This document shows, in pieces, positions 8,442 to 42,336 of a stretch of 64,000 nucleotides of DNA (within the stretch, counting starts at the first letter, position 1; every line of letters starts with the position of its first letter). The position numbers and the translations under genes were made by a program. The stretch spans positions 124,793 through 188,792 of the forward strand of contig CAYZOP010000005.1 in the NCBI GenBank assembly GCA_964480485.1. The letters are read 5' to 3'. The notes beneath the pieces were generated by a model, which saw nothing but the letters and a program-made list of their open reading frames with translations, did not search any database and was not told where the DNA came from. The stretch is from an uncultured Desulfobacterales bacterium (GTDB lineage Bacteria > Desulfobacterota > Desulfobaccia > Desulfobaccales > 0-14-0-80-60-11).

Positions 8442-8593
8442 GGCGGCAGACGGTGGAGGCGGCCCCTGGAGGTCGGCACCGGGGGTAGGCGGGTTCCCCC
8501 AGCCCACCGGCCCGGGCGGTTGGCCCGGCAGCCCATGGTCAGCCAGCGGAGACCGCCGGGTCGGCTGGCCGCCCATTTTCAGAGGCGGTCACC

Positions 8594-9904
8594 ATGACAC
8601 CAGAGATACCCCAGGTAACAGTCATCAGCGATTTGCCCCACCACGCGGGGCGTTCCGTCACCCTCCAGGGGTGGGTCTATCACCTGCGCTCCAGCGGCAA
8701 GGTGCGCTTCGTGGTGGTCCGGGACGGCACCGGCCTGGCCCAGGGGGTCTTGGTGAAAGGCCATCTGCCCGAGGCGGATTTCCAGGCATTTGAGGAACTG
8801 ACCCTGGAGTCCTCCCTGAGGCTGACCGGCAGGGTGAAGGCCGAGCCCCGGGCTCCCGGGGGCTTCGAGCTGGAGGTCACCGGCCTCAGCCCGATACACC
8901 TCGCCGAGCCCTACCCCATCCAGCCCAAGGAACACGGGGTGGGTTTCCTCCTGGACCATCGTCACCTGTGGCTCAGGTCCCCCCGGCAGCAGGCCATCCT
9001 GCGCATCCGGGACGAGGTGGCCCGGGCCTGCCGGGATTTTTTCCACGCACGCGGATTCGTGTTGGTGGACACCCCCATCCTCACCCCCACCGCCTGCGAA
9101 GGCACCACCACCCTGTTTGCCACCGAGTACCTGGACCGGGGCAAGGCCTACCTTTCCCAGAGCGGCCAGCTTTATCTTGAAGCTGCGGCCATGGCCCTGG
9201 GGAAGGTTTATTGCTTCGGGCCCACCTTCCGGGCCGAGAAGTCCAAGACCAGGCGGCACCTCATGGAGTTCTGGATGGTGGAGGCCGAGGCCGCCTTCTT
9301 CACCCTGGAGGACGTGCTCCACCTGGCCGAAGAGCTGGTGCGGGCCGTGGTGCTTCGGGTGCTCAGCGAGCGCCGGCGGGAGCTGGCGGTGCTGGAGCGG
9401 GACGCGACCCCCTTGGAGGCTGTCTTTAAGCCCTTCCCCCGCCTCACTTACCAGGAGGTGCTGGCCCGGCTGGCGGATGCAGGCCGGGAGTTGCCCTTCG
9501 GCGAGGATTTGGGAGGCGATGAGGAGACCTTGGTCTCGCAGATGTTCGACCGCCCGGTGATCATCACCCACTACCCCTTGAGCTGCAAGGCCTTTTACAT
9601 GGAGGCCGACCCGGCTGACCCCCGGCTGGCCCTGTGTGTGGACCTGCTGGCCCCCGAAGGCTACGGCGAGATCATCGGGGGCTCCCAGCGGGTGGCGGAC
9701 CTGGCCACCCTGGAACAGCGCCTGGACGATCATGGCCTGCCCCGGGAACCCTTCGCCTGGTACCTGGATTTGAGGCGGTTCGGCAGCGTCCCCCACGCCG
9801 GGTTCGGCATGGGCCTGGAACGGGTGGTGGCCTGGGTCTGCGGCCTGAAACACGTCCGGGAAGCCATCCCCTTCCCCCGCCTCTTGGACCGCCTGTATCC
9901 CTGA
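8594..9904 (+). CDS. asnS: Asparagine--tRNA ligase
   Basis: OB-fold [22 protein letters not shown]; HRHLWLRS; [11 protein letters not shown]; [22 protein letters not shown]; EIIGGSQR; [11 protein letters not shown]. Confidence 0.96.
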
Positions 9905-13532: not shown

Positions 13533-13620
13533 GCCGGAGTGGTGGAATGGGTAGACGCAGGGGACTCAAAATCCCCCGGGCCGCGGGCCTGTGCGAGTTC
13601 GAGTCTCGCCTCCGGCACCA
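13533..13620 (+). tRNA. tRNA-Leu(CAA)
   Basis: GCCGGAG/CTCCGGC acceptor stem, D-loop GGTGGAATGGGTAGAC, anticodon arm GGGGA-CTCAAAA-TCCCC, long variable arm, GTTCGAGTC T-loop, encoded CCA. Confidence 0.96.
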
Positions 13621-13758: not shown

Positions 13759-15114
13759 CTATTCCTCCTCCTCTTCCAGCTCGATGCCGTCCCGTTCGAA
13801 CTGCTCGGCCCTAAGAGCCCGGGCCGCCTCGATCTCCGCCTCGCTCCAGGGTTCGTAGTCCAGGCAATTGGCCACCAGTTCCCAGAGATAGAGCGTTTCC
13901 TTATAGTGGCCCATGTCCATTTGGCCTTTCTTGACCTCGCCCCCCAGGCCCTTTAAGATCTGATCCCGGCAGTTATGGCAGGGAGCGATGACCAGCTCGG
14001 CGCCGGTGGCCCGGATCTGGTCGGCCTTCATGCGGCCGTAGGCCAGGCGTTCCTCATCGTAGGGCATGGCCCAGGCCCCGCCCCCGGCGCCGCAGCATAA
14101 ATTGTTCAGCGGATCGTCCGTCATCTCCCGGTAGAGGGCGGGGTCGATACACTGCTGGGCGATCCAGCGGGTCTGATAGGCGGTGTGCTCTCCGAAGGCC
14201 ATGTGGGATTTGCGCACGTAATTGCACGGGTCGTGTACCGTGTAAGTTTCGTGATAGGTGCGGGTATTGAGCCTGATCCTGCCTGCCTTGATATATTCCT
14301 CCAGCAGGTCCATGACGCTCACCACCCTAAACTCTTCAAAAACTTCCGGAAACCAGTTTTGGAACCCGAACCGGGTCGCATAGTAGGCGTGCCCTCATTC
14401 GGGGTATAAGATAGTCTTGCATTTCAATCGCCGGGCGTTTTCGATGACCCGGGCCACCTGAGCCTTCATGGACTCGTCGTCCCCGGAGAACAGGCCCCAG
14501 TTGACTCCTTCCCAGTTGATGGAGGAGACGGTCCAGTCCTCCCGGGCGGCGTAAAAGATGCGCCACCAGAACTTCATGTCGTCGGGCTCGCCGAAGGGCT
14601 CCTTGGAGTTGACGGTGACAATGAGGTTGGCCCCTTCCTTGTCCACCGGCACATAGAACCCGGGACAGGGCTGGGACTCGTCGTTTTCCATCTCCACGCC
14701 CAAATCCGCCAACAGGAACAGGAAGTCATCCCGGGGAATCCCCAGGTTGTTGCCCCGCTCCAAGTTCATCATGGTGCCCTTGTGGATGGGACCCGGCACC
14801 TGATCCCGGTCCCGGGCGGTGCGGCAGGCCCGGAAGGCCTTGAGGAGCTGGATGCCCATGGGGCACTGATACTGGCAGCGGCCGCACAGGGTGCAGACCC
14901 AGGGCCACTTGGAGTCGATGACCTCCTGCTCAAGCCCGAAAACAATGGCCCGGATGGCCTTGCGGGGGTCCCACCCCGGCACCAGGCCGGAGGCGGGGCA
15001 GCCGCCGGAGCAGGTGCCGCAGGTATAGCAACGGTCCGCCACCTCGGGGCTGAGCCCGCCGATGCGCCGCACCCGACGGTCCACGCTCACCCACGGAAAA
15101 GCCTCTTCTGCCAT
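13759..15114 (-). CDS. HdrD/GlpC-like Fe-S oxidoreductase (2x[4Fe-4S] + CCG domains), probable selenoprotein (UGA at 14395-14397)
   Basis: ORFs 14395..15156 and 13759..14325 are in one frame separated only by TGA. Read-through gives ILYPE-U-GHAYY where the family has PECGH. CYTCGTCSGGCP and CTLCGRCQYQCP ferredoxin motifs; HDPCN, CCGAGGG, PCHNC CCG motifs. GGAGG RBS before ATG 15114. Confidence 0.88.
14363..14377 (-). promoter_or_regulatory. Candidate bacterial SECIS hairpin
   Basis: mRNA: UGA + 17 nt + G-ACCCG-[GUU]-CGGGU-U, a 5-6 bp stem with G first in the apical loop. Confidence 0.65.
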
Positions 15115-15253
15115 GTTCCCTCCAAACGTACGCTTGATTTGGGGAGAGGAGGCCAAAGGTGGGCGGTCCCTCCCCCCCTCCCCCCCTGCCGATCTACAGG
15201 GGGGAGAGGCGCTCGAAGGGAGGACCGGCGGCTCCTGGCCCTCCCCGCAATCT

Positions 15254-18187
15254 TCAGCCGGTGTGGAGAAACTCTTTTACCAGGCGGCTCCAGCCCAATT
15301 CCGGATAGTGGCCGAAGACGTCGTCGATGAGCGCGCCGCCGGACTGGAGGGTGGCGCCCACCGAGGGCTCCAGCATGCCGATGAGCCTTAGGGTCTCCTG
15401 TTCCATCCAGGGGAGGCAGGCCGGGCCGGAAAGCAGGTTTCCCAAATCCTGGCTCAGTTCCGTGGGAGCCACCATGATCAGCCAGCCGTCGCCGTAGGGG
15501 TCGTCATGCACCAGCCCCGGCCGGTTTAGAACCTTGGGGTTCACCGCTTCGATGATCCCATAGACCGGGCCCAGGACCGCAGCCTGCTCTTTGCCGCGAT
15601 GCAGGGCCAGCGCCGCTTGCTCCCGGCGGATCTCCTGGCCGACCTTGGGCAGCCGCAGGCTGTCGCCCGGCCCCAGGACTTTCTGGGAAAAATCGTCCAT
15701 CCCCAGGCGCAGCCGGCCGCCGGATTCCAGGGCCACCCACGTATGGCCCCGGTGGAGAAAGCGGGAGGTGGGCACCTTGAGGCCGAAGACTTCCTCAAAC
15801 TCCTCCATCATCTTGGCCAGAAAGACGGCCAGAGCCCGGTATTCCGGAGTTTGCTCCAGGACCTCCCGGGCCCCCCCGGTCAGCCGCTTGACGGCCTCCT
15901 GCTGGCCCCGGGAGGGCAGGAAGGCGTTGCCTGGCCGCAGCCGTCGGTTCACTACGGCGGTGGCCAGGACGGATTCGCCCCCGTTTTCCACCGTAAGGAA
16001 ATCCCCTGGCTGGATGCCTAAAGAGTGGGCATCCTGGGGATTGAGTTCAACGATGACTTCTTCGTTTTCCCGGAAGGGCACCGGCGGTTGCCCCACCTGA
16101 GAAACGCCGGGGTGCCGGGCGAAGGCGGTGCCGATGGTCAGCCAGAAGGGGTGGGCGGGATCGATGGCGGTGGCTTGGGGCCCCAGATTGGCCACGAAGT
16201 GGTCCAGGGTGTCCAGGAAATCCCCCGGAGCATTGGCTGCCAGAGAGTGAAACAGCAGGCGGTTTGGGTCGATGCCGGCCTCCGCCAGCAGGGCCTGGAC
16301 CTGCTCCACCCCCCGGGCGGCGCACAGGTTGCCATGGGAGGACTTGCAGTTGTCCGTCGGGCAGGAGAGCACCATGACTCCGTCGGCTCCGGCTTCGAAG
16401 GCCTGGAGCAGGTATTCCGGATCAACCTTGCCGGCGCACGGCATCTTGATGGGGGTGAAGCCCAAGGGCAGCGACGCGGCATGCTGACGGGTCGTTGTCT
16501 GCCAGGCCTCCCAAGCGGAGTTGCGGCACAGGAAGGCAACGATGCGCGGGCGGAGGTGGGGATCCAGGGCAGTAAGCTGCGCCATCACCTGATCGTCGGC
16601 ATAGTTCCGCAGTTGGATGGCGTCGTTGGGGCACTGGCTGGCACAGGTGCCGCAACCCTGGCAGGCCAGCTCATGGATGATGGCTCGACTGTCCCAGGTA
16701 ATGGCCCCATGCGGGCAGAAGCGGTGGCAGGTGAGGCACAGGACGCATTTACCCCGATCCACCACCGCCCGGCCCGCCGGGGCCACCGCCTGACCCTGGC
16801 CCAAGAGGTCCTGAACCGCCAGGAGCGCGGCGTTGACATCGGCATCAGTATCCTCCAGATCCATGAGGCCCCGGGCGGGCCCAACCACGAAAATCCCCCG
16901 GCGGTTGGTGGCCACCGGGATATAGTGGACGTTGTCATCCTGGAGAAAGCCCCGGGGGCCCAGGGGCAGGCGGAGGAGTTCGGCCAGCCGGGCATTGTCC
17001 TCCGTGGCCCGGTACTGGTCGTCCAGGACCACCAGGTCGGCCATCAGGGCCATCTCCTCACGCAGGGTGGGCTCATAAAAGGTGAGGCGCACTCCGGCGT
17101 CCGTCAGGCTGAAGATCGGGCAGTCCCGGAGCTTGATGAACACCAGGCCGGCTTCCTGGGCCTCCCGAAGAGCCCGCTCGATTCCCTTGCCGGCCAGCTT
17201 GGTGTTGCCCACCAGGAGAAACACCCGGCTGCCGGCTTCCAGCATCTTGGCGGCGGCCTTGAGAGCCCGGCCCAGAGATAAGGGGTGGCTCTCCCCGGCC
17301 AGCCCTACCAGAAAGGCGACGCTGCCCGGGAGGGCGGCGCCGGCAGCCAGCTTGGCCTCCAGCCGTCTCTGGGAGATGATGCCGGGGTGCTCCGGCGCCC
17401 CGTGGCAGTTGCGGGCGCTCTGGCGTTGCAGTTCCGGGGCCAACACCACGGCGCCCACCGTCTCCCGCAGCTGGCCTTGGGGGGTGGCGAGGCTTACGGT
17501 GAAGGCGCCGGTGACGCCGCCGAAGTCCCGGATAGTTGCCTCAAACACCCTCTGGATGAGGGGATGGTCCTGTATCTGCCGGGTAAGGCTGGCCAGCAAC
17601 TCCGATCCCGCAATTCCCAGGGCATATTCGAAGGCCAGGGAGCTGGGCTCAGGGTTGGGACTGGCCAAGAGGACCGGATAGTCCATCTGGGCCAATTCCC
17701 AGGCCAGGCGCCAGGCGGCATAGGAATCCCCCCACACCAGAACCCGGCGGCTGACCGGCACGGTTTGGGAGCTAAGGGGCACGGCCCGGCTGACCTGGGC
17801 GGCCGCCAGGTGGATCATCTCCAGGCTCTTGGCGGTGCGGGCCGCCGGATCCGGGTATTCCAGGGCGAGGGTCAGGTCCACTTCCTGAAAGCGGGCGGGG
17901 TTCACCCCCACCTCCTCCAGCAGGAAGCGGGCCACCCCGGCGCCCCGGTGTTCCGGATCCTTGGCCACCAGGAGCACCGGTCCCGCTGCCTGGTCCGGCG
18001 GGAACAGGGGACGCAGCAGTTCCGCCTGCCGGTGGGCCGGCAGCGCCGGGTCCACGGGGATCACCTGGCAGTCAGGGAGGCGGGCCTCCTCATGGGAAAA
18101 CTTTTGGGGGTCCAAGCCGGCCTGGGCCAGTTCCGGGCCGTGCATGACCAGGATATGCAGGGTGCTGTCGGGGTGTGCAGGGTTCAC
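15254..18187 (-). CDS. Multidomain fusion: degenerate HdrA-like half + 2x[4Fe-4S] + MvhD + molybdopterin-dinucleotide-binding-fold domain + GcvH-like domain
   Basis: HdrA-like segments (VGAVVLA, GFLQDDNVHYIPVATNRRGIFVVGPARG); CVLCLTCHRFCP and CQGCGTCASQCP; MvhD (IVAFLC, MPCAGKVDPEYLLQAFEAGADGV.V.SC..DNC...GN); VELNPQDAHSLGIQPGDFLTV...PGNAFLP; GHTWV...GMDDFSQK...GPVYGIIEAVN...DDPYGDGWL. GTG start overlaps the upstream stop (GTGA) after a GGAGG RBS. Confidence 0.85.
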   Translation of the reverse strand: MNPAHPDSTLHILVMHGPELAQAGLDPQKFSHEEARLPDCQVIPVDPALPAHRQAELLRPLFPPDQAAGPVLLVAKDPEHRGAGVARFLLEEVGVNPARFQEVDLTLALEYPDPAARTAKSLEMIHLAAAQVSRAVPLSSQTVPVSRRVLVWGDSYAAWRLAWELAQMDYPVLLASPNPEPSSLAFEYALGIAGSELLASLTRQIQDHPLIQRVFEATIRDFGGVTGAFTVSLATPQGQLRETVGAVVLAPELQRQSARNCHGAPEHPGIISQRRLEAKLAAGAALPGSVAFLVGLAGESHPLSLGRALKAAAKMLEAGSRVFLLVGNTKLAGKGIERALREAQEAGLVFIKLRDCPIFSLTDAGVRLTFYEPTLREEMALMADLVVLDDQYRATEDNARLAELLRLPLGPRGFLQDDNVHYIPVATNRRGIFVVGPARGLMDLEDTDADVNAALLAVQDLLGQGQAVAPAGRAVVDRGKCVLCLTCHRFCPHGAITWDSRAIIHELACQGCGTCASQCPNDAIQLRNYADDQVMAQLTALDPHLRPRIVAFLCRNSAWEAWQTTTRQHAASLPLGFTPIKMPCAGKVDPEYLLQAFEAGADGVMVLSCPTDNCKSSHGNLCAARGVEQVQALLAEAGIDPNRLLFHSLAANAPGDFLDTLDHFVANLGPQATAIDPAHPFWLTIGTAFARHPGVSQVGQPPVPFRENEEVIVELNPQDAHSLGIQPGDFLTVENGGESVLATAVVNRRLRPGNAFLPSRGQQEAVKRLTGGAREVLEQTPEYRALAVFLAKMMEEFEEVFGLKVPTSRFLHRGHTWVALESGGRLRLGMDDFSQKVLGPGDSLRLPKVGQEIRREQAALALHRGKEQAAVLGPVYGIIEAVNPKVLNRPGLVHDDPYGDGWLIMVAPTELSQDLGNLLSGPACLPWMEQETLRLIGMLEPSVGATLQSGGALIDDVFGHYPELGWSRLVKEFLHTG

Positions 18188-19422
18188 GTCTTTGCCTCCA
18201 GATAGTGGCGCACCTGCCGCACCGTCTGGGTGGCGTCGGCGATGCACTCCAGAATGCCCAGGGGGCCTTTGGCGGTTCCCACCAGGAAGACGCCGGGAGG
18301 TGCGCCTGAGGCCCCGTTTTGCAAAAAGCCGTCCGCCGTCAGGGGCAGGTTTAACAGGTCCGCCAGCCTGGCGTTGTCCAGCCCCGGGGAGATGCCCACC
18401 GCCAGGACCAGGAGGTCCACCACCCGGAACAGGGCCTGCCCGCCGGCCTCATCGAAGAAGCGAAGCTTCAGGCTGCCGTCGGCGGTGGGCGCCAGGTCCC
18501 CGGGCAGGACCCGGATGAGCTCCAGTTCCTGTTGCACCGCGGCTTCGAATCCCAGGGGGTCGGGCCCCACGTTTTGCAGGTCCATGTAAAAGGTGGTTAC
18601 CTGGACCTCGGGCCAGCGATGCCGGATGAGCCGGGCCAGGCGCAGGCCGTAGGCGCAGCAGACCCGGGAGCAGTAGGAATGCTCCCGGTCCCGGCTGCCC
18701 ACGCACTGGATGAAGGCCACCCGCCGCACCCGGCGGCCGTCCTGGGGCCGGAGGAGGGGGCCGCCCTGGCGCAGGATCTCTTCCAGCTCCCAGCCGGTGA
18801 TGATCTGGGGGAGGTGGCGGGAGGCGGCGATGGAGCGGGCCGGCGGCGCTGCGGGCTGATACCCGGTGGCCACCACCAGGCTGGAGGTTGTCAGGCTCAC
18901 CGTGGTCCCAGGGCGGGTCAGGTCGATGGCCTGGGTGGGGCAGCTCTCCTGGCAGCGCCGGCAGGAACCGTCCTGGAAGTAGAGGCAGACCGCCGGATTC
19001 ACCGCATAGCGGGGGTGGTTCTCCGCCGAGGCCGTGGTGAGCAGGGCTCCCGGCACCGGACACTCCTCCAGGCAGAGGCCGCAGTCCAGGCAGCGGTGGG
19101 GGTCCACCGGCTGGGGGCTGGACCGCAGGGTGAGATCCAGCCGGCCATGGTCCCCCCGGGCGGCCGTCAGATCCGTGTTGGGATAGCGGGTGATGCCCGG
19201 CGTGGCAAACAGGTCCCGGAGCGCCTGCTCCACCCGGCAGGCCCCGCACTTCTGGCAGACCTCCGTGGCCTTGCACACAAAGCTGCCGGCCCGTCCGCCG
19301 AAAAAGGGGCTTTTCTCCACCAGGGCCACGTCCCATCCGCCCCGCCTCAGCTCCAGGGCGACGGTGATGCCGGCAATGCCGCCGCCCAGGACCACCACCG
19401 GATAGGTAGGTTCGCTTTTCAT
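18184..19422 (-). CDS. HdrA-like FAD/Fe-S protein (short, QmoA-sized)
   Basis: VVVLGGGIAG FAD motif; CLDCGLCLEECP and C.RCQESCP ferredoxins; FIQCVGSRD...YCSRVCC HdrA cluster motif; GVFLVGTAKGP. Confidence 0.88.
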   Translation of the reverse strand: MKSEPTYPVVVLGGGIAGITVALELRRGGWDVALVEKSPFFGGRAGSFVCKATEVCQKCGACRVEQALRDLFATPGITRYPNTDLTAARGDHGRLDLTLRSSPQPVDPHRCLDCGLCLEECPVPGALLTTASAENHPRYAVNPAVCLYFQDGSCRRCQESCPTQAIDLTRPGTTVSLTTSSLVVATGYQPAAPPARSIAASRHLPQIITGWELEEILRQGGPLLRPQDGRRVRRVAFIQCVGSRDREHSYCSRVCCAYGLRLARLIRHRWPEVQVTTFYMDLQNVGPDPLGFEAAVQQELELIRVLPGDLAPTADGSLKLRFFDEAGGQALFRVVDLLVLAVGISPGLDNARLADLLNLPLTADGFLQNGASGAPPGVFLVGTAKGPLGILECIADATQTVRQVRHYLEAKT

Positions 19423-19458
19423 AGGGATTCCGTTCGACCTCGTGGTGCAGGCCGGATC

Positions 19459-20343
19459 TTAGGCGCCTGCGGCCTGAATCACTTCCGCCAGCAGGTCGCT
19501 TTTGCCCTTGGCCTTGACATAGGCTCCGTCCGCCAGCTTCTCTGCTCTGATTTGCCTGAGCAGCCGGCCGACTAAGGCGGCGCCCCGGTGCAGCACCTCT
19601 TCGGGGTCGCTGCCCGCCAGTTCCCGGATGACCTCGGGGGGCAGGGAATAGACCTTGCGCAGCTCGCCTTGGGCGGCCTTGTCCACTTCCTCGGCGCTGG
19701 GCACCTTGACGCAGGCCAGGAGCTTGGCGCCGTTGAGCTCCAGTCCCTGCCGGAAGCGGCGGAATTTCTCCAGGTCGAAGACCGGGGCGGTGACCAGAAA
19801 CTGGGCTCCGGCGGCCAGCTTCTTTCGGATCTTGAGCTGCTGGGGCGCCAAGGGGTCGGCCTCGGGGATGGCCACCGCGCCCAGGAAAAACTGGGGATTT
19901 CCCTGCAGGGCGTGGCCGGCGCTGTCCTGGCCCGCCATGAGTCCCTGGGCGATCTTAAGGAGCTGCACCGAGTCGGCGTCGTAGACCGGCTTGGCGTCGG
20001 GATGGTCCCCGAGGGTGACGTAGTCGCCGCTCAGCATCAGGAGGTTTTCCACCCCCAGGGCGGCAGCCCCCAAGAGATCGCTCTCCAGGGCCAGGCGGTT
20101 GCGGTCCCGGCAGGTCATGAGGAGCAGGGGCTCCCCCCCGGCTTCCTGCACCAGCCGGGCCGCGGCCAGGGCCGAGACCCGCATCTTGGCATGCTCGTTG
20201 TCCGGGACCCCGAAGGCCGCGACGGTGCCGTTCAGGCCGCGCACCGGAGCCAGCATGGCCTTGAGATCCACCCCCTTGGGAGGCTTGATTTCCGCAACGA
20301 TGGGGAACCGGCCGCCTGCCAACGCTTCCTTGAGCTTACCCAT
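19459..20343 (-). CDS. metF: Methylenetetrahydrofolate reductase large subunit MetF
   Basis: AEIKPPKG; PDN; MTCRDRNRLALESDLLGA..LGVEN.L..SGD....GDHP.AKPV.D.DS.QL; KK..AGAQF. Confidence 0.93.
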   Translation of the reverse strand: MGKLKEALAGGRFPIVAEIKPPKGVDLKAMLAPVRGLNGTVAAFGVPDNEHAKMRVSALAAARLVQEAGGEPLLLMTCRDRNRLALESDLLGAAALGVENLLMLSGDYVTLGDHPDAKPVYDADSVQLLKIAQGLMAGQDSAGHALQGNPQFFLGAVAIPEADPLAPQQLKIRKKLAAGAQFLVTAPVFDLEKFRRFRQGLELNGAKLLACVKVPSAEEVDKAAQGELRKVYSLPPEVIRELAGSDPEEVLHRGAALVGRLLRQIRAEKLADGAYVKAKGKSDLLAEVIQAAGA

Positions 20344-21016
20344 GGGTGCCGTATCTCCTCAGATAGCCCGGGTGGATCACCGTGCCGGGATGGGTGCTCC
20401 GTCCATGCGGATGGAGGGGCAGGATGGCCTCGATCTCCCCCAGCCGGCCTTGCCGGGCCAGTTTTTCATAAATCTCGCACCAGGCGCAGGCCCGGTCCTG
20501 GTTGACCTCGCACTTCCCCTGGATATTGCCGCCGCAGGGGCCGTTCAAGAGCCCCTTGGGGCACATGGTCTGGGGGCAGACGCCGCCGGTCAGGCCCAGA
20601 TAGCACTGGTGGCAGGCCCGGCAGCGCTCGGTGTAGAGCCCCGCAGCCTCGTTCACCCCGATGAAGGTGGTGTTCAGGGCCGGGAAGACCGGCTTCATCT
20701 CGGGCATGGCCGCCAGGAATTGCACCCCGGCGCCGCAGGCCGTGGAGATGACCGCATCGTAGTCAGCCGCCAGGTCTCTGAGAGGCTCAATGAATTCCCG
20801 GTCGCACTGTCGTTCCACCGTGATCTCTCCGATACGGCCGTTCTGGCCCGCCAGTTTGCGGGCGAGTTTGAGCTGCGAGGCCAGCAGCCCCACCTCCTTC
20901 TCGCCCCCCGCCAGGCAGACCGCCACGCAGGTGCCGCAGCCCACAATGAGCAAATGCTCATAAGGGGCCACCATGTCCTTGATTTCCTGAAAAGGCTTGC
21001 GCGCTGCGATAATCAT
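20336..21016 (-). CDS. metV: Methylenetetrahydrofolate reductase small subunit MetV (Cys-rich Fe-S/Zn)
   Basis: GCGTC..VC..GGEKEV; ERQCD.EF; ACGAGVQ; ERC.AC..C.LG.TGGVCP...CPKGLLNGPCGG...GKCEV; overlaps the metF start. Confidence 0.92.
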   Translation of the reverse strand: MIIAARKPFQEIKDMVAPYEHLLIVGCGTCVAVCLAGGEKEVGLLASQLKLARKLAGQNGRIGEITVERQCDREFIEPLRDLAADYDAVISTACGAGVQFLAAMPEMKPVFPALNTTFIGVNEAAGLYTERCRACHQCYLGLTGGVCPQTMCPKGLLNGPCGGNIQGKCEVNQDRACAWCEIYEKLARQGRLGEIEAILPLHPHGRSTHPGTVIHPGYLRRYGTHG

Positions 21017-21516
21017 GATGCCACCGCCGTTTGAGGTTCTGCCGGGACCGCCTCCGGGCGTCCCCAGGCCGGGTTCAAGGGGCTGGGACCCAGGGCCTTG
21101 ACCCGTTCGGTCATTTCCTTCACCACCGCCACGAACTTGGGAGCGTCACTGGCCGCGATCTCGTACATGGCCAGCCGGTCCGCACCTAGGCCGACCTCGT
21201 CCAGCAACTGCCGGGCATATTCCACTCGCTCTCGGGCTCTGAGATTTCCTTCCAGGAAATGGCAGCTCCCGGCCTCTCACCCGCCCACGAAGATGGCGTC
21301 CGCCCCGGCTTCAAAGCCCTTCAAAATGTGGATAATGTCGATGCGGCCGGTGCACAGGTACTTGACGATGCGCACCGTGGCCGGGTACTGCATCCGGGCC
21401 GAGCCCGCCATGTCCGCGGCGGTGTAGGTGCAGTAGGTGCACACGAAGGCCAGGATCTTGGGGCTGAACTCCGCCCCGACTGCCGGGGCGGCGGCCGTCT
21501 CTCGCGCTGCTTTCAT
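21013..21516 (-). CDS. mvhD: MvhD/FlxD-type [2Fe-2S] subunit, probable selenoprotein (UGA at 21277-21279)
   Basis: ORFs 21277..21594 and 21013..21225 are in one frame. Read-through gives KILAFVCTYC...CTGRID...KGFEAGADAIFVGG-U-EAGSCHFLEGNLRARERV, with UGA at the GCxxxxCH cysteine. Confidence 0.92.
21244..21260 (-). promoter_or_regulatory. Candidate bacterial SECIS hairpin
   Basis: mRNA: UGA + 16 nt + AUUUCCU-[GGA]-AGGAAAU, a perfect 7-bp stem with G first in the loop. Confidence 0.75.
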
Positions 21517-21523
21517 GGGATCC

Positions 21524-24500
21524 CTACCTTGTCTCTGCGCCCATCGCCGGCCAGGACTCGCGGATGGCGGCGATTTTGGCGATAAACTGCTCATCCAGGT
21601 TGTGCTTCACCGCGATGGCCTTGCGGGGGCAGGCGCTGGCGCAGTTGCCGCACCCCTGGCAGGCGGCGGCGTCAATCTGCACCACGCCTTCGCTTTCATC
21701 CATACGCGGCACCCCGTAGGGGCAGGTGCGCACACAGGTCAGGCAGGCCACGCACTTTAAGGGGTCCACCTGGGCCACCGAGCCGGCCACGTACATCTCC
21801 TCCTGGGCCAACACCCCCATGGCCCGGGCCGCCGCACCCCTGGCCTGAGCCAGGCTTTCCTCCAGGGTCTTGGGGCCGTGGGCCAGGCCGCACAGAAAGA
21901 CGCCCGCGGAGGCGAAGTCCAGGGGTCTGAGTTTCAAGTGCGCCTCCATGAGGAAGCCGTCGGCGTCCGGGGGCAGCTTGAAAACCCGGGCGATGTCCTG
22001 GCTGGCCGGGTGGGGCCGGATGGCCGCGGACAGCACCAGGTAGTCGGCGGGCAGGGCCAAGGCAGCCCGGAGGGACGGATCATAGACCTGCACCTCCAGC
22101 CCCTGGGGCCCCGCCTTGACCTCGGGCCGACGGTCCGCGTCAAAGCGCACAAACTGCACCCCCAGGTCCCGGGCCTTCTTGTAGTAGACTTCTTTCAGGC
22201 CGTAGGTCCGGATGTCCCGGTAGAGGATGAAGATCTCCGCCCGGGGGTTGAGTTCCTTGAGCCGGATGGCATTTTTCACCGCCTCGCCGCAGCAGACCCG
22301 GCTGCAATACGGGTGCTCCGGCTCCCGCGAGCCGACGCACTGGATCATCACCACCCGGGCTTGGCCCTGGAAATCCTGGGGGCCCTCCCAGAGCAGATGC
22401 TCAAACTCCGTTTGGGTGAGGACCCGGGGATTTTGGCCGTAGAGGTATTCCTGCGGCTCGTACTCCTGGGCGCCGGTGGCGACGACCACCGCACCGTACG
22501 TAAGTTCCCGACGGAACTGCCCGGCGGCCACGGTGCTTGTGAACTTGCCGATGTGCCCGGAGACGTCCAGGACCCGGGTGTTGGGAAGCCACTCGATCAA
22601 GGGGTGGTCTTCCACCCGCCGCACCAGATCCTCCAGAAAGGGCTGCACCGGGTGCCCCTCCAGGGTGTGGTGCAGCCGCCGGGCCAGGCTGCCGGAAAGC
22701 TTGCCGTCCTGCTCCGTCAGGTAGACCTGGTAGCCGCCGTCGGCGATGGTCAAGGCTGCGGTGAGGCCGGCCAAGCCGCCTCCCACCACCAGGGCCTTTT
22801 GGGTCACCGGGAAAAGCAGGTCGCCGATGGGTTTCAAAAGGGCCGCCCGGGCCACCGACATGCGCACCAACTCCTTGGCCTTCTCGGTGGCCAGTTGGGG
22901 GGAGCCCTGGTGGACCCAGGAGTCCTGGTCCCGAATGTTGGCCATTTCAAAGAGATACTTGTTCAGCCCCGCCTTGCGCAGGTTTTCCTGGAACAACGGC
23001 TCGTGGGTCCGGGGGCTGCAGGAGGCCACCACGATGCGGTTCAGGTTTTCCGCTTCGATGACCTGGCGCATGTTGTCCAGGGAATCGGTGGCGCAGGTGA
23101 AGGTGTAATGGTCGGCATAGGCCACCTGCGGCAGGCCGCGGGCATAGTCGGTGACCGCAGCCACGTCCACCACGCCGGCGATGTTGATGCCGCAGTGGCA
23201 GATGAACACGCCGATGCGGGGTTCCGCCCCCAGGATGTCCTTTTCCGGCGGATATGCCTCTTTGGTCACCAGGGTGCCCCGGGCCTCCGCCAGGGAGGCT
23301 GCGGCGGCGCCAGCCGCGCCCGAGGCCTGTCCCACGGTCTCGGGGATGTCCTTGGGGGACTGGAAGGCGCCGCAGGTGAAGATGCCCGGCCGGGAGGTGT
23401 GCACCATTTCCATGGGCGGGCTCTTGACAAAGCCCCAACGGTCCGTGTCGATGCCCAAGTGGCGGGCCAGCTCCCGGGTGGCCGGGTGGGGGTTCAAACC
23501 CACCGAGAGCACCACCATCTCAAAGACCTCGCTCTGAACCGTGCCGGCTTCGTCCACGTAGCTCAGTTCCAGATCGTGGGTGCCGGGGTCCTGGGCCACC
23601 CGGGAAATCATGCTGCGCACGTAGCGCACCCCGTGATCGGCCTTGGCCCGCTCGTAGTAGCGGTCGAAGCCTTTGCCCTGGGCCCGAAAGTCAATGAAGA
23701 AGATGGTGGGTTCAATGTCGGCGTCGTGCTCCCGGGCAATGATGGCCTGCTTGGTGGCGTACATGCAGCAGACATAGGAGCAGTATTCCCGGCCGCAGGA
23801 GGCGTCCCGGGAGCCCACGCACTGGATCCAGGCCACCTTCCGGGGGGCCCGGCCGTCGCTGGGACGAAGCACGTGGCCGCCGTAGGGGCCCGTGGCGGAG
23901 AGCAGCCGCTCGAATTGCAGGGAGGTCACCACGTTGGGGTAGCGGCCGAAGCCGTACTCGGCCTTTTGGGCGGCGTCGAAGGGCCGAAAGCCCGGGGCCA
24001 GGATCAGGGCCCCCACCTCAAGTTCCCGTATTTGCGGCTGCATGCTGTGGTCGATGGCCCCGGCCTGGCAGGCGGTGACGCACTGCATACATTCGGAGCA
24101 GCCGCCGCAGTTGATGCAGCGAGCCGCTTCGTCCACCGCCTGGTCTTCTGCGAACCCCAGGTTGATTTCCTGAAAGCCCTGGGTCCACTGGTCAGGGGGC
24201 AGCTCCGGCATGCGGGCCCGTGGTTTTCTGGCCGCCTTTCCCGGGATGGGGGTCCAATGACCCTCCTCTTTGGGGAGGGGCCGCAGGGGAAAGTCCCGGT
24301 TTGCGGTGAGGTCACGGCCGTTGATATAGCGGTGGATGGACTCCGCCGCCTCCCGGCCTGCGGCCACTGCGGCGATGGCGATGTAGGGCCCGGAGACCAC
24401 GTCGCCGCCGGCAAAGACGCCTGCCCGGCTGGTGGCCAGGGTGAGGGGGTCGGCCTCGATGAGCCCCCGGGGGGTGAGCTTGAGCCCGTCCGCCTCGGTG

Positions 24501-25999
24501 AGGAAGTCCAGGTGGGCTTTTTGGCCGATGGCCAGGATCACCGCATCGGCACGGCGGGTGACGGTTTCCTCTTCCCGGTAGGTGGGGGCGAAGCGGCCCT
24601 GCTCGTCGAAGACCCGCTCCACCGCTTTGAGCACCGCGCCGGTCACCGCTCCCTGGGGTGCCAGAATCTCTTTGATCCCGAAGCGGTGCCAGATCTCGAT
24701 GCCCTCCCGTTGCGCTTCGGCCACCTCCCAGGGGGAGGCGGGCATCTCCGATTCGCTCTCCAGGCAGACCACCGTGACCCGGCCGCCTTGGCGCCGGGCG
24801 GTGCGGGCCACGTCCATGGCCACGTTGCCGCCGCCGATGACCAGGACCTCCTGGCCCTGGAAGTCAAAGCGCTCCCCGGAGGCCGAGGCCTTGAGGTATT
24901 CCACGCCCCAGAACACCCCCCGGGCATCGGCGTTGGGCACCGGCAGACGGATGGAGTCCTGGGCGCCCACACCCACGAACACGGCCCGAAAGCCCTTCGC
25001 GGTGAGGAGATCGTTGATGGTGCAGCCGGGGCCGCCGATGGGAGCGTTATAATGGATCTCCACCCCAAGCCGGTTAATGTAGTCCACCTCCCGGTCCAGC
25101 ACCTCCCGGGGCAGACGGTATTCCGGAATGCCGTAGCGCAGCCAGCCGCCCGCCTGAGCTGCGGCCTCGAAGATCTCCACCCGGTAGCCCCGGCGGGCCA
25201 GGTGATAGGCGCAGCTCAAACCCGAGGGTCCCGCCCCCACCACGGCCACGGCCTCCTGCCGTTTCTCCACCTGGGGGACCGGCAGCGTCTGCCAGTCCAC
25301 CTGGTCGGCCACGAAGCGCTTCAGGGCGCAGATGGCCACCGGCTCGTCCACCTCCTGGCGGCGGCAGGCGGTCTCGCAGGGGTGGGGGCAGATGCGGCCG
25401 ATGGTGCCGGGCAGCGGCAGACGCTCCATGATCAGGGCCAAGGCTTCGGGGAATTTCCCCGCCTTGACGAGCTGTACGTAGCCCTGCACGCTCAGGTTGG
25501 CGGGACAGGTCCGCACGCAGGGCGCCCGGTCCAGCTTCTTGATGGCGAAGGTGGCGGGAATGGCCTGGGGAAAGTGGCGGTAGGCCGCCGGCCGCATCCC
25601 CAGGCCCTCGTCAAAGCTGGAGGGCAGCTTGACGGGGCAGGCCTCGGCGCAGGCCCCGCAGGCGTTGCATTTGGCCCGGTCGATGTAGCGCGGCTCCTGG
25701 CGCAGGGTGAGGGTGAAGTTCCCCGCCTCGCCCGCCACCCCCGCCACCTCCGACTGGGTGATGATCTCGATGTCCGGGTGGCGGGCCACCTCGATGAGCT
25801 TGGGGGAGATGAGGCAGGTGGAGCAGTCGTTGGTGGGGAAGGTCTTGTCCAGTTGGGCCATGACCCCCCCGATGGAGATGTCCCGCTCCACCAGGTAAAC
25901 CTTAAACCCGGCGTTGGCGGCGTCCAGGGCGGCCTGCATGCCGGCGATGCCGCCCCCCACCACGGCGATGGCGCCTGTTTTGGTGCGTTCGCTAGTCAT
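21524..25999 (-). CDS. HdrL-type large flavoprotein: tandem HdrA halves with an inserted GltD/NfnB-like NAD(P)H oxidoreductase
   Basis: HdrA N-terminus GGGIAG..AALD, LDKTFPTNDCSTC; GltD-like insert (APC..TCP, GRICPHPCE..C.R, GAGPSG, GGWLRYGIPEYRLP, IGGGNVAMD, EAARCINC); two QCVGSR..YCS.VCC motifs; ASCSPRTHE; C-terminal 2x[4Fe-4S]. Confidence 0.9.
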   Translation of the reverse strand: MTSERTKTGAIAVVGGGIAGMQAALDAANAGFKVYLVERDISIGGVMAQLDKTFPTNDCSTCLISPKLIEVARHPDIEIITQSEVAGVAGEAGNFTLTLRQEPRYIDRAKCNACGACAEACPVKLPSSFDEGLGMRPAAYRHFPQAIPATFAIKKLDRAPCVRTCPANLSVQGYVQLVKAGKFPEALALIMERLPLPGTIGRICPHPCETACRRQEVDEPVAICALKRFVADQVDWQTLPVPQVEKRQEAVAVVGAGPSGLSCAYHLARRGYRVEIFEAAAQAGGWLRYGIPEYRLPREVLDREVDYINRLGVEIHYNAPIGGPGCTINDLLTAKGFRAVFVGVGAQDSIRLPVPNADARGVFWGVEYLKASASGERFDFQGQEVLVIGGGNVAMDVARTARRQGGRVTVVCLESESEMPASPWEVAEAQREGIEIWHRFGIKEILAPQGAVTGAVLKAVERVFDEQGRFAPTYREEETVTRRADAVILAIGQKAHLDFLTEADGLKLTPRGLIEADPLTLATSRAGVFAGGDVVSGPYIAIAAVAAGREAAESIHRYINGRDLTANRDFPLRPLPKEEGHWTPIPGKAARKPRARMPELPPDQWTQGFQEINLGFAEDQAVDEAARCINCGGCSECMQCVTACQAGAIDHSMQPQIRELEVGALILAPGFRPFDAAQKAEYGFGRYPNVVTSLQFERLLSATGPYGGHVLRPSDGRAPRKVAWIQCVGSRDASCGREYCSYVCCMYATKQAIIAREHDADIEPTIFFIDFRAQGKGFDRYYERAKADHGVRYVRSMISRVAQDPGTHDLELSYVDEAGTVQSEVFEMVVLSVGLNPHPATRELARHLGIDTDRWGFVKSPPMEMVHTSRPGIFTCGAFQSPKDIPETVGQASGAAGAAAASLAEARGTLVTKEAYPPEKDILGAEPRIGVFICHCGINIAGVVDVAAVTDYARGLPQVAYADHYTFTCATDSLDNMRQVIEAENLNRIVVASCSPRTHEPLFQENLRKAGLNKYLFEMANIRDQDSWVHQGSPQLATEKAKELVRMSVARAALLKPIGDLLFPVTQKALVVGGGLAGLTAALTIADGGYQVYLTEQDGKLSGSLARRLHHTLEGHPVQPFLEDLVRRVEDHPLIEWLPNTRVLDVSGHIGKFTSTVAAGQFRRELTYGAVVVATGAQEYEPQEYLYGQNPRVLTQTEFEHLLWEGPQDFQGQARVVMIQCVGSREPEHPYCSRVCCGEAVKNAIRLKELNPRAEIFILYRDIRTYGLKEVYYKKARDLGVQFVRFDADRRPEVKAGPQGLEVQVYDPSLRAALALPADYLVLSAAIRPHPASQDIARVFKLPPDADGFLMEAHLKLRPLDFASAGVFLCGLAHGPKTLEESLAQARGAAARAMGVLAQEEMYVAGSVAQVDPLKCVACLTCVRTCPYGVPRMDESEGVVQIDAAACQGCGNCASACPRKAIAVKHNLDEQFIAKIAAIRESWPAMGAETR

Positions 26000-26062
26000 A
26001 TGGGCTCAGTCGTTTGGTCGGGCGGACGGGGGGCGAACCAGAGCGCCGCCCCGCCCCGGGGT

Positions 26063-26893
26063 TCACAGCAATCCCTTGCCTTTAAGCAGGGGCCGGGGAT
26101 CCACCAGGTGCCGGGCCAGCCAGCCGGGGGCGTCGGGATGTCCCAGGGCCAGTCCCATGAGCTCGGTGAAATAAAACACCGGCAGATAATAGGGTTTGCC
26201 GGTCCGCCGGGAGATCCGCCCCTGGGTCAGATCCAGATTGGCCTGGCACATCTGGCAGGCCACCACGAAACACTCGGCCCCGGCCGCCAGGGCCCGGTCA
26301 TAGAGGCGGGCCGCCAGGGTGTCGATGAGGTCCGGCCGGGCCATGGCCAAGCCGGCCCCGCAGCAGTCGGTCTTATAGGACCAATCCCGGGGGTCGGCCT
26401 GGAGGACCTCCAGGAGCCGGTCCAGGCCGGTGGGGTTCTCCCAATCCGGTTTGTCGGTGATGCCCGGGGGCCGGGCCGCCAGGCAGCCGTAGTAGCCCAC
26501 CGCCTTGAGGCCGGTAAGGGGCCGCACCACCTCCTTGGCTAAGGCGGCCAGAAAGCTCTCCTGGGTGAGAAAGTCCAGCAGGTCCCAAATCTTCACCCCC
26601 GTCTCCCGCTCCCCGGGGGGCGCCTGCTTTTCGGCGGCTTTGAGCCGGTTGAAGCAGAGGGCGCAGGGCACCACCACGTCCAGGCCGACCTGCCGGGCCA
26701 GGGCCAGGTTGCGGGCCGGCAGCGCCACCGCCAGGTGGTGATTGAGGCTGTGGGCGGCGCTGGCGCCGCAACAGTTCCAGTCCTCCAACTCCTCCAGATC
26801 CACTCCCATAATGGGCGCCACGGCGTGGATGGAGGCGGCGTAGTCCGCCGCGGTGCCCTCCAGGGAACAGCCGGGATAATAGGATACCTTCAT
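26063..26893 (-). CDS. hdrB: Heterodisulfide reductase subunit B
   Basis: YYPGCSL, DWNCCGA, PCALCFNRL, YYGCL..RP, CCGAG, ACQMCQANLD (two CCG domains). Confidence 0.95.
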   Translation of the reverse strand: MKVSYYPGCSLEGTAADYAASIHAVAPIMGVDLEELEDWNCCGASAAHSLNHHLAVALPARNLALARQVGLDVVVPCALCFNRLKAAEKQAPPGERETGVKIWDLLDFLTQESFLAALAKEVVRPLTGLKAVGYYGCLAARPPGITDKPDWENPTGLDRLLEVLQADPRDWSYKTDCCGAGLAMARPDLIDTLAARLYDRALAAGAECFVVACQMCQANLDLTQGRISRRTGKPYYLPVFYFTELMGLALGHPDAPGWLARHLVDPRPLLKGKGLL

Positions 26894-26900
26894 GCCTGCC

Positions 26901-27482
26901 TCACACCCCCGCGTCTTGAAAGATTTTGGCCAGATCGTTCCGCCCCTTGAGAGGCTTGGGGCCGATGGGGCGCAGCCTGCCACGGCGCAATAGCCCCCAC
27001 CCCAGCTTGGCGTTCTCCCAGAGTTCTTTCAGGTCAGGTCGCCGCCTGAGCTTATACAGGGTGAAGCGCTGCATGAGGGCCATCTCCCCCAGGCGCCCTC
27101 CGCTCCGGCGAATGCTCTCCAGAAAGAAGCGGTGGAAAACGGCCACCTCCGGCTGTGCCACCGCCTTCCCTTGGCGCAGGGCCTCCTCTTTGAGCCAGTC
27201 CATGACGCCGGCGATGTCGATGCCGTTGGGGCAGCGGGTGGTGCAGGTGACGCAGGCGGCGCAGACCCAAATGGTGCGGCAGGTGAGCAGCGTCTCCGTC
27301 TGACCCAGGAGCGCCAGGCGGATGACCCGGTCCGGCAACAGATCCATGGCGAAGGTCAAGGGGCAGCCGGCGGAGCACTTTTTACACTGAAAGCAGGAGG
27401 AAACCGGGGTGGGAAAATGCCTGGCCAGGCTTTCGGATAACGTAAAGGATGGGACCAGCGGTTGGTCGAGGTTGCGTTCCAT
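26901..27482 (-). CDS. hdrC: Heterodisulfide reductase subunit C
   Basis: CFQCKKCSAGCP and IWVCAACVTCTTRCPNGIDI; F...FLESIR..GR..E; precedes hdrB. Confidence 0.95.
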   Translation of the reverse strand: MERNLDQPLVPSFTLSESLARHFPTPVSSCFQCKKCSAGCPLTFAMDLLPDRVIRLALLGQTETLLTCRTIWVCAACVTCTTRCPNGIDIAGVMDWLKEEALRQGKAVAQPEVAVFHRFFLESIRRSGGRLGEMALMQRFTLYKLRRRPDLKELWENAKLGWGLLRRGRLRPIGPKPLKGRNDLAKIFQDAGV

Positions 27483-40199: not shown

Positions 40200-40247
40200 C
40201 CGCTCCTTAAAAAGATTTGCCCAAACCTTATCATCACCAGCGGGGGC

Positions 40248-41528: not shown

Positions 41529-42258
41529 CAGCGATACCCCCTTTGTTATGGAGATGCCGGTTTCTTAAGGAACATCTTCCCCGCCGCCCCTGGTGAAAGG
41601 AGCACCCCAAGCCTTCTGGTGGGCCTGCAAGGGGCCGGCCCACCCTTGGTTCCTGTTGCCGCCTGCGGGCTGCTATCAGGTTGGCGGATCCCGGCCGACC
41701 CCCGCGTGTTCCGGTTTCCCTACCTACTGCAAGACCGCCCGGGCATGCCACGTTATCCGTAAAGGTGGCGGCTTTGGAGTTTTCCGGGTTCGGTGCCGCG
41801 TGAAGTTCAGCCAAGATCCAGGGGCTCAGGTTGGTTCAGGCACGGCATCCAGGATTGCAGGACTTCCCAAAATTTCCCCGGCAGGGCTTGGAGGGTGAAA
41901 AGAATGGATAATATGGCGGGCCCCGGTTTACCCTGATGAATCACCACAGACTGCCTTGATCTCTGGGTGAAGTTTTAGGCCAAGGAGCCCCATCGGATTA
42001 TTTCGTTGGTTAGGAATATTATATGAAATGCAGGCGGTCCGCTATAGAAATTTTGAGCCCTTTCTTCATGGTGGTAGGGGGTTGGGGGAGAGGAACGTTG
42101 AGAACACCCCGTCCTTTCCCAAAATTACGCCCTCACCCTTCCCCACCGGTGGGGAGGGAACCAGAGGCTTTCTTTTGGGAAAGCTATTCCTGAAACGATA
42201 TCCTGGAAGGGATGTCCGGGAGGAGGGAGACCTTGCAGGAATACGGCGTTGATAGGGT

Positions 42259-42336
42259 TGGGGTGAGCGACGGGATTTGAACCCGCGGCCTCCGGGGCCA
42301 CAACCCGGTGCTCTAACCAGCTGAGCTACGCCCACC
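42259..42336 (-). tRNA. tRNA-His(GTG)
   Basis: Minus strand G-GTGGGCGTAGCTCAGCTGGTTAGAGCACCGGGTTGTGGCCCCGGAGGCCGCGGGTTCAAATCCCGTCGCTCAC-C-CCA; GTG anticodon; G-1:C73 His identity. Confidence 0.96.

Follow-up and report, generated by a model that had tools for sequence, protein, structure and literature searches.

The 64,000-nucleotide stretch of DNA analysed here (the window; contig CAYZOP010000005.1 of an uncultured Desulfobacterales bacterium) carries on its minus strand an operon which, judged from the encoded proteins, probably specifies a Moorella-type (Hdr-type) methylene-tetrahydrofolate (methylene-THF) reductase with an added pair of Qmo-like HdrA paralogues, and the whole would act as a reversible NAD(P)H- and ferredoxin-linked methyl-/methylene-THF oxidoreductase. 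The core formed by genes 1-6 is already known, and what the operon appears to add to it is a conserved Qmo-like pair, genes 7 and 8, with a non-lipoylated GcvH-like tail.

The DNA belongs to a 280-kb contig (Ga0394875_0000030) in metagenome 3300037501 of the Joint Genome Institute. The G+C content of the window is 66%, so that raw lists of open reading frames (ORFs) are noisy, and coding ORFs were picked with a filter on the G+C content of third codon positions (GC3). The filter returned a single uninterrupted run of minus-strand genes from 27482 down to 13759, which on translation gave nine proteins with Pfam and NCBIfam domain assignments far above chance. The nine co-directional genes described in the initial annotation of this DNA were thus borne out by translation and domain matches, and their coordinates proved exact. 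In operon order, and together with one domain and one spacer discussed below, they are:

26901-27482, minus strand: hdrC; 193 residues; ferredoxin-like, with two CxxCxxCxxxC motifs (residues 30 and 74); Pfam Fer4_8/17
26063-26893, minus strand: hdrB; 276 residues; Pfam CCG 4.5e-20 in two stretches, motifs at 9-80 and 137-216
21524-25999, minus strand: long hdrA ('HdrL'); 1491 residues; Pfam, NCBIfam and PDB matches
21013-21516, minus strand: mvhD; 167 residues; FlpD 2.6e-46 across the selenocysteine (Sec) codon TGA at 21277-21279
20336-21016, minus strand: metV; 226 residues; Pfam DUF5981 'MTHFR C-terminal' 1.6e-32; start overlaps the mvhD stop by 4 nt
19459-20343, minus strand: metF; 294 residues; Pfam MTHFR 8.8e-18; 8-nt overlap with metV
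18184-19422, minus strand: gene 7, QmoA-like HdrA paralogue; 412 residues; PDB HdrA 5e-51
15254-18187, minus strand: gene 8, QmoB-like fusion; 977 residues; GTG start overlapping the gene 7 stop
15257-15799, minus strand: GcvH-like tail of gene 8 (residues 797-977)
15115-15253, minus strand: spacer between genes 8 and 9; 139 nt, G+C-rich
13759-15114, minus strand: gene 9, HdrD/DsrK-type; 451 residues; HmcF/TmcB/DsrK-like; TGA at 14395-14397

The intergenic spacers measure, from hdrC to gene 9, 7, 63, 7, -4, -8, 36, -4 and 139 nt. The overlapping or short spacers claimed for the entire run are therefore found for genes 1-8, but not for gene 9. The two 4-nt stop/start overlaps are ATGA (mvhD-metV) and GTGA (gene 7-gene 8). 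The start of mvhD is ambiguous, as an ATG at 21594 is likewise open. The NCBIfam HdrC model matched hdrC (4e-15) and NCBIfam models of methylene-THF reductase (MTHFR) matched metF, in both cases under the cutoff. According to Pfam, metF encodes the catalytic subunit of methylene-THF reductase, and the metV product is its predicted iron-sulfur/zinc partner.

Genes 1-6 reproduce the HdrCBA-MvhD-MetVF system of Moorella (Mock et al. [quoted passage not shown] The HdrA of the M. thermoacetica cluster is a protein of 162.8 kDa, whose N-terminal thioredoxin reductase (TrxR)-like domain is interrupted by a GltD domain binding FAD and NAD(P)H. A second HdrA unit, without the inserted ferredoxin domain, spans residues 922-1487, and E696/K750 and E1204/K1246 make up the Glu/Lys signatures of the flavins (Kremp, Roth and Müller, PMC9430772). 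HdrL of the window has the same length and domain plan. Its NfnB/GltD-like FAD and NAD(P)H block (approximately residues 157-656, Fer4_20 and Pyr_redox_2) lies inside the inserted ferredoxin domain of the first module and is flanked by HdrA matches; the second module begins at about residue 925, contains no Cys motif between 1078 and 1196, i.e. also lacks the inserted ferredoxin domain, and is followed by a C-terminal 2x[4Fe-4S] domain. The best PDB matches were HdrA (5e-184), StnC (8oh5_C, 1e-93) and an NfnB-type chain (4ylf_B, 1e-76). Mapping of the 5odc_A motifs placed the bifurcating Glu/Lys signatures at E697/K750 and E1200/K1242, so that both are present, at residue numbers nearly equal to those in Moorella. 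HdrL 'in place of plain HdrA' had been listed among the extra parts of the cluster. Since the Moorella HdrA already has 1,490 residues and an NAD(P)H module, this claim has to be withdrawn: genes 1-6 contain no expansion and HdrL is the standard subunit. A shorter HdrL orthologue was seen at locus L027 (4391-7357), in an otherwise identical setting with mvhD, metV, metF and the homologues of genes 7 and 8; it matches only residues 22-162 and 610-1479 of the query and has no NfnB/GltD-like NAD(P)H insert.

The two CCG motifs in the HdrB of methanogens are the ligands of two non-cubane [4Fe-4S] clusters. A regular-expression search of the window HdrB found two complete CCG motifs, i.e. full ligand sets for both clusters, and the Moorella HdrB has two as well. 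[quoted passage not shown] Three differences set the window apart from Moorella: its MvhD is a selenoprotein, two more HdrA paralogues (genes 7 and 8) come after metF, and the host is a Desulfobaccales-type member of the Thermodesulfobacteriota rather than a Firmicutes acetogen, for which reason the system probably runs in the oxidative direction physiologically. For sulfate reducers a MetF-Hdr adjacency is on record (PMC10553843), and the MetF of Desulfobacca acetoxidans was earlier counted among putative bifurcating Met complexes (PMC6085437).

The gene 7 product aligned in the PDB search to HdrA residues 143-564, which correspond to the flavin domain with its inserted ferredoxin domain. Across 122 homologues it keeps the GGGIAG FAD motif, a CX5CX2CX2C motif, the CVGSRD...CC cluster motif and the eight Cys in its 2x[4Fe-4S] ferredoxin insert, and E214, the equivalent of HdrA E356, is invariant. 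The gene 8 product consists of an HdrA scaffold (residues 1-545, with 2x[4Fe-4S] at 481-519), an MvhD domain (approximately 549-668), a beta-barrel of the molybdenum-enzyme domain-IV type (approximately 700-785) and a GcvH-like domain with a conserved 45-residue extension (797-977); the corresponding Pfam matches are Fer4, FlpD (1e-28), Molydop_binding (1e-10) and GCV_H (4e-19). The top Foldseek matches of an AlphaFold2 (AF2) model of this protein (predicted local distance difference test, pLDDT, 67) were full-length HdrA chains, with about 646 columns aligned; in the ferredoxin, beta-barrel and tail regions pLDDT falls below 50, which is too weak for judging domain packing. The initial annotation had described genes 7 and 8 as a split HdrA pair carrying MvhD, Mo-fold and GcvH domains, and the domains are as described, but gene 8 contains a whole HdrA scaffold and not half of one. 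The count of three HdrA-type modules also needed correction, as there are four TrxR-like ones: HdrL holds two, gene 7 one, and gene 8 one that is degenerate.

The degeneracy of the last module is a property of its clade. In a census of about 90 gene 8 homologues, the dinucleotide-binding motif GxGxxG was replaced by WGDSxAA in essentially all of the approximately 85 clade members, without an acidic residue closing the next strand. In an alignment of 19 orthologues no Cys before residue 481 is invariant; the C-terminal 2x[4Fe-4S] motifs and the four Cys of the MvhD domain are invariant. On these motifs, the first 470 residues probably bind neither flavin nor clusters. Gene 8 products fall into three length classes of about 977, 790 and 676 residues, which makes the beta-barrel/GcvH-like tail optional. 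The organization of genes 7 and 8 resembles that of QmoABC, in which two adjacent HdrA paralogues are found, the first of about 410 residues, whereas the second, a larger protein, has a ferredoxin domain at its C-terminus and also an MvhD-like domain (Pires 2003; Ramos 2012, PMC3333476). The pair in the window has this two-subunit architecture, including the MvhD-like domain in the second member.

Species-representative genomes were scanned and the nine window proteins were mapped onto the 44 loci obtained. The complete order hdrC-hdrB-hdrL-mvhD-metV-metF-A'-B', where A' and B' stand for genes 7 and 8, occurs at 16 loci, and about 10 more, cut by contig ends, are consistent with it; all hosts are Desulfobaccales, Syntrophobacterales or Thermodesulfobacteriota metagenome-assembled genomes (MAGs). 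The same eight genes are present on two further metagenome contigs, where the gene 7 product is just 51-54% identical to that of the window. In Desulfobacterales MAGs that are more distant, metV-metF-A'-B' stands on its own as a four-gene unit that has neither the NAD(P)H module nor HdrBC; its B' is shorter and mostly has GxGxxG. The view that genes 7 and 8 belong with the metVF core is thus upheld, both genes coming after metF at every related locus examined. The best evidence available for A' and B' working with MetVF is that they are found beside it in two operon contexts independent of each other. The searchable literature holds no description of the metVF-A'-B' arrangement; the two papers likeliest to mention it lie outside that literature.

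Two of the loci showed peculiarities of their own. L054 contains a 433-residue ORF without a Pfam match between hdrL and mvhD (4852-6153) and a CGGC-domain gene between metF and A' (8276-8698), and neither insert resembles a window protein. At L003 a second, divergent Met/Hdr cluster with a different gene order lies directly behind the first (13761-22895), its proteins being 39% (metF-like), 43-57% (hdrL-like pieces), 45% (mvhD) and 47% (metV) identical, which points to paralogous Hdr-Met systems within one genome.

Several parts of an electron-transfer path can be read from the sequence. Besides the MetF/MetV site there is an FAD module that binds NAD(P)H; HdrL adds two more intact FAD motifs of the HdrA type and gene 7 a third; and, in agreement with the earlier description, two MvhD-type [2Fe-2S] modules are present, one in mvhD and one in gene 8. 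MvhD is the customary [2Fe-2S] connector. With its inserted ferredoxin domain, gene 7 has the very element that is missing from the second HdrL module. Based on this inventory we propose that the products of genes 7 and 8 would form a QmoAB-like pseudo-dimer (a heterodimer mimicking the HdrA homodimer), through which MetVF and the long HdrA could be wired to one more one-electron partner, most probably ferredoxin. The port for ferredoxin would be the inserted domain of gene 7, substituting for the element that the second HdrL module does not have, and the non-lipoylated tail of gene 8 might be a docking domain. The overall reaction would be reversible:

2 NAD(P)H + Fd(ox) + methylene-THF <-> 2 NAD(P)+ + Fd(red) + methyl-THF

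where Fd is ferredoxin. The methyl-/methylene-THF couple has an E0' of about -200 mV. In an acetate oxidiser the assembly would run backwards, the electrons of methyl-THF (about -200 mV) and of reduced ferredoxin being confurcated to NAD(P)+, opposite to the reaction that has been proposed for Moorella. A thiol/disulfide site would be supplied by HdrBC, together with the Sec-containing HdrD where one is present. As far as protein families can tell, bifurcation or confurcation in the reverse Wood-Ljungdahl pathway is a reasonable reading of the operon.

Several observations weigh against this proposal. At the position of the bifurcating-HdrA residue K409, gene 7 has R261, and Arg is found there in 121 of the 122 homologues; the gene 7 flavin may, given this substitution, not bifurcate. 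The AF2 model of gene 8 is of moderate confidence (pLDDT 67). The modules appear separable, since hdrCB does not adjoin hdrL at L021 or at L054 (at the latter, about 350 nt upstream are covered), and since the HdrL of L027 has no NAD(P)H insert. The synteny of genes 1-8 is a functional link, not a physical association. Even for Moorella and Sporomusa, neither a second redox partner nor a function for HdrBC has been established, and purification did not yield a tight complex (PMC9430772). Finally, the 64-kb window contains no other genes of the Wood-Ljungdahl pathway (acs, fhs, folD) and no sel genes, for all of which the initial annotation had suggested a check, and neither were apr or dsr genes found in it.

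Both in-frame TGA codons, in mvhD and in gene 9, turned out to be well-supported Sec sites, each lying within a conserved domain and aligned to Cys or Sec of homologues. The mvhD codon (21277-21279, residue U80, inside the FlpD domain) aligns with a TGA in 17 matches at related loci and with Cys in 51 other matches, the MvhD domain of gene 8 homologues included; in the solved structure of a VhuD chain (9sfi_K) its counterpart is the non-standard residue X, so that the Sec position of the window MvhD is that of VhuD. The gene 9 codon (14395-14397, residue U240) is kept as TGA in L002 and is Cys in L037. It occupies the first Cys position of a degenerate first CCG half, 'YPEUGH', compared with 'YPGC' in HdrB. 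Hairpins, as yet only candidates for selenocysteine insertion sequence (SECIS) elements, lie 3' of both codons, the one in mvhD beginning 8 nt past the TGA. At L008 (6457-7477) mvhD occurs as tandem copies, one with TGA and one with Cys at this position.

Proteins of the same types have been named before in the genome of Desulfobacterium autotrophicum, namely a Sec-containing MvhD, a Sec-containing HdrD and HdrL (Strittmatter 2009, PMC2702500). As in the window, HdrL is there a fusion of HdrA with glutamate synthase followed by mvhD, HdrD4 contains Sec, and HdrA is spread over two or three genes. In contrast to the window, HdrL lies beside dsr or fdh genes and metF forms a separate group, and the eight-gene arrangement is not described (PMC2702500).

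Gene 9 encodes two CxxCxxCxxxC motifs, one complete CCG motif (297-382) and the Sec in the degenerate first CCG half. It thus has the two [4Fe-4S] motifs and the C-terminal CCG domain of the HdrD/DsrK/HmcF/TmcB family, but its NCBIfam matches (HmcF 9e-53, TmcB 5e-44, DsrK 7e-37) score 127-180 bits against cutoffs of 400-750 and do not reach equivalog level. No membrane cytochrome partner (HdrE, DsrM, HmcE or TmcC) for this soluble protein adjoins it in the window. The family has 818 detected members, of which most are about 485 residues long and have an HTH_17 domain at the N-terminus. Their genes stand, in Desulforhabdus amnigena and Desulfobulbus, in the order hycI - HTH-hdrD-like - hdrA (about 1025 residues) - mvhD - mvhG - mvhA. 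The HdrD-like proteins of these loci (L049-L051) are 47-59% identical to gene 9, have the same Fe-S and CCG layout, and are encoded directly beside HdrA and MvhD genes; they differ from gene 9 in the N-terminal HTH_17 domain, in having Cys instead of Sec, and in their [NiFe] hydrogenase partner. An excisionase-type DNA-binding fold such as HTH_17 is odd on a redox subunit. Another side observation concerns L052 (6001-9870; also L053), where an HdrD-like gene is followed by a 225-residue ORF without a Pfam match and by a second HdrD-like gene in two pieces (249 and 159 residues), which is probably another TGA/selenocysteine copy.

The terminal selenoprotein had been regarded as a member of the cluster, but this does not extend beyond its closest relatives. 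Gene 9 lies 3' of gene 8 only in the window, in L001, a Logan-assembled contig from run SRR12686701 with genes 100% identical to those of the window, and in L002, where it is 85% identical and in the same position. At all other loci with downstream flank, unrelated genes follow gene 8. It is nevertheless conceivable, although we consider it doubtful, that gene 9 encodes an integral ninth subunit of one supercomplex, its Sec-containing CCG site serving as the terminal disulfide reductase. Gene 9 is on the same strand and has a strong ribosome-binding site of its own, GGAGGG ahead of the ATG; no terminator or sigma-70 promoter consensus was found on the minus strand of the gene 8-gene 9 spacer; the position and 85% identity in L002 and the partnership of the family with HdrA-MvhD in other genomes fit such a role as well. 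Against it stand the absence of gene 9 after gene 8 elsewhere, the unrelated neighbourhood of its closest full-length relative (P0098, 72%), the HdrBC that the cluster already possesses, and the 139-nt spacer itself, which is rich in strong hairpins (CCCCCCUG...CAGGGGGG) without a U-tract and folds with -74 kcal/mol (z = -1.7). The spacer could be an attenuator or a stabiliser. All in all, gene 9 looks like a plausible partner of HdrA/MvhD that is accessory to the cluster and not core.

The main rival to the preferred reading, unlikely and given slightly less credit still, is that genes 7 and 8 make up an Hdr-like enzyme of their own, soluble and separate, together with an HdrD-like protein (gene 9 here, one from another place in the genome in other hosts): HdrA'/HdrA''-MvhD-HdrD. 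In this Qmo-like shunt, electrons of methyl-THF would pass from MetVF to DsrC or to adenosine 5'-phosphosulfate (APS) reductase and bypass NAD(P)H. The QmoA/QmoB-like pairing with its MvhD domain would suit this route, as would the gene 9 family acting as the HdrD-type partner of HdrA-MvhD modules in Desulforhabdus and Desulfobulbus, and on established redox values, reduction of APS or DsrC by the methyl-THF couple (-200 mV) could be exergonic. The Desulfobacterales unit, metV-metF-A'-B' alone, favours it somewhat. However, apr, dsr and qmoC are missing from the surroundings of every locus examined, an adjoining gene 9 is confined to the window and L002, and the B' of the Desulfobaccales clade has no flavin motif, yet HdrL with its NAD(P)H module is kept. 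We prefer the reading in which genes 7 and 8 serve the NAD(P)H- and ferredoxin-linked reductase.

The C-terminal part of gene 8 raised a further question, as the protein-bound dithiol suggested for the complex would have to be carried by the GcvH domain. The match at residues 700-785 is to the beta-barrel that forms domain IV in molybdopterin enzymes (Pfam 1e-10; FdhF 7qv7_S, 8e-10), and residues 797-977 have the GcvH fold with the conserved extension of about 45 residues. This tail is the best conserved part of gene 8, with 62-73% identity compared with 53-62% for the whole protein. In a gap-free alignment to E. coli GcvH, however, the lipoyl-lysine column contains Lys in only 3 of the 19 gene 8 orthologues and the ESVK context is absent. 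An exhaustive HMMER search detected 1513 proteins at E <= 1e-10, many of them stand-alone proteins of 220-310 residues with the same extension, and in 146 family members the column is mostly Gly, with Lys in 9. The dithiol thus finds no support, the conserved lipoylatable lysine (ESVK) of GcvH and other lipoyl carriers, LbpA included, being missing, and the tail appears to be a non-lipoylated GcvH-like module that recurs with Hdr/CCG redox proteins. LbpA of the sHdr systems works through its lipoylated lysine; the sHdr-LbpA systems of sulfur oxidisers likewise have a GcvH-fold protein alongside Hdr-like proteins, but the LbpA lysine is not conserved in the window tail. Hence a lipoylated swinging arm whose dithiol is reduced by HdrBC/HdrD, as for LbpA in sHdr, is very improbable in spite of the GCV_H match (4e-19), the Lys that the window protein itself has at the aligned position ('HRGKEQ') and the fusion of GcvH-like domains to CCG proteins in P0256, because Lys is so rare in this column, Gly so common, and the ESVK context lost.

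P0256 (1391 residues) joins three GcvH-like domains of a non-canonical type to FAD_binding_4/FAD-oxidase_C, to a ferredoxin domain and to two CCG domains, and thereby ties the GcvH-like family to Hdr-type chemistry in another protein setting. At L012 (4-444, minus strand) a free-standing GcvH-like gene, 48% identical to the gene 8 tail, lies upstream of hdrC on the opposite strand. The possibility that short-form loci encode the tail as a separate downstream gene was rejected: the 289- and 433-residue ORFs of L054 are unlike any window protein, and no free GcvH-like gene occurs within 10 kb of short-form gene 8 loci. An identification of the tail with DVU0851, the last gene of the Desulfovibrio qmo operon, was likewise dropped, DVU0851 being reported as Desulfovibrio-specific.

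That genes 7 and 8 are the organism's QmoAB, the electron donor to APS reductase, is hardly credible: although annotation by the Joint Genome Institute (JGI) names some gene 8 homologues QmoB and the two-paralogue architecture with an MvhD domain fits the published description (PMC3333476), qmoC (membrane haem b) and aprBA were found neither in the window flanks (RND efflux genes on one side, the anti-sigma/tRNA region on the other) nor at the related loci examined, the pair always follows metF, and B' has, by motif inference, lost the FAD motif, whereas Qmo binds two FAD (Ramos 2012, PMC3333476), and has gained the beta-barrel and the GcvH-like tail. P0096 was looked at as a possible true QmoB and rejected, as it is not within a qmo operon; it belongs to an HdrA-MvhD-HdrCB cluster of its own beside a FAD_binding_2 protein and a small ferredoxin. 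An arrangement of this kind was seen at L058 (3170-10789): sulfate/Na symporter - FAD_binding_2 protein (585 residues) - ferredoxin (107 residues) - HdrA-MvhD fusion (779 residues) - hdrC - hdrB. By its domains, this looks like a further Hdr module wired to an AprA/fumarate-reductase-like flavoprotein.

To our knowledge, the methylene-/methyl-THF step is the least understood redox step of the Wood-Ljungdahl pathway, and we know of no identified acceptor of methyl-THF electrons in sulfate-reducing or syntrophic acetate oxidisers. The extra, strictly conserved pair of HdrA paralogues behind metVF in two operon contexts names concrete candidate subunits, which are also present, with a short form of gene 8, in the lineage of the cultured Desulfobacca acetoxidans, and offers a testable lead on how acetate-oxidising anaerobes deal with methyl-THF electrons. 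A bolder and at present speculative interpretation is that the MetVF-linked QmoAB-like pair is the missing, soluble electron outlet or inlet of the methyl branch in Thermodesulfobacteriota that use the Wood-Ljungdahl pathway, coupling methyl-THF oxidation to ferredoxin and/or to a thiol-disulfide carrier of sulfate respiration; it would be a fifth subunit type of methylene-THF reductase beyond the four recognised in acetogens. In the same tentative vein, the carrier could be DsrC, or APS reductase through a QmoA-like contact, and the GcvH-like/beta-barrel tail might represent a docking domain of a new kind. Domains with the GcvH fold that lack the lipoyl-lysine make up a large family linked to Hdr/CCG redox proteins; annotation pipelines now label these domains as glycine-cleavage H protein.

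The operon is bounded upstream by a resistance-nodulation-division (RND) efflux operon (OEP, AcrB), and scans for sigma-70 promoters and intrinsic terminators in the 714 nt upstream of hdrC gave no useful result for the minus strand. On the downstream side a convergent tRNA gene and plus-strand genes form the boundary. An Rfam scan of the whole window detected two tRNAs only, with no match to a riboswitch or SECIS family:

13533-13620, plus strand: tRNA-Leu(CAA), 139 nt past the gene 9 stop on the opposite strand, marking the end of the cluster
42259-42335, minus strand: tRNA-His, farther along the window

The remainder of the window consists of housekeeping genes (flagellar rod/ring, mfd, surA, lysS, major facilitator superfamily and RND transporters, cobO/cobT/cobS, prfB, trpE-like and ilvE-like). 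Four ORFs of 869, 438, 256 and 542 residues (37638-41564, minus strand, and 50511-52917, plus strand) have a coding-like GC3 and no Pfam match at E <= 1e-4 or 1e-5. At 43693-48318, cobO (ATP:corrinoid adenosyltransferase), cobT (DBI_PRT) and cobS stand beside a radical-SAM gene and an acyl-CoA dehydrogenase gene; these cob genes belong to corrinoid lower-ligand synthesis and assembly, and are expected for a corrinoid-dependent one-carbon metabolism.

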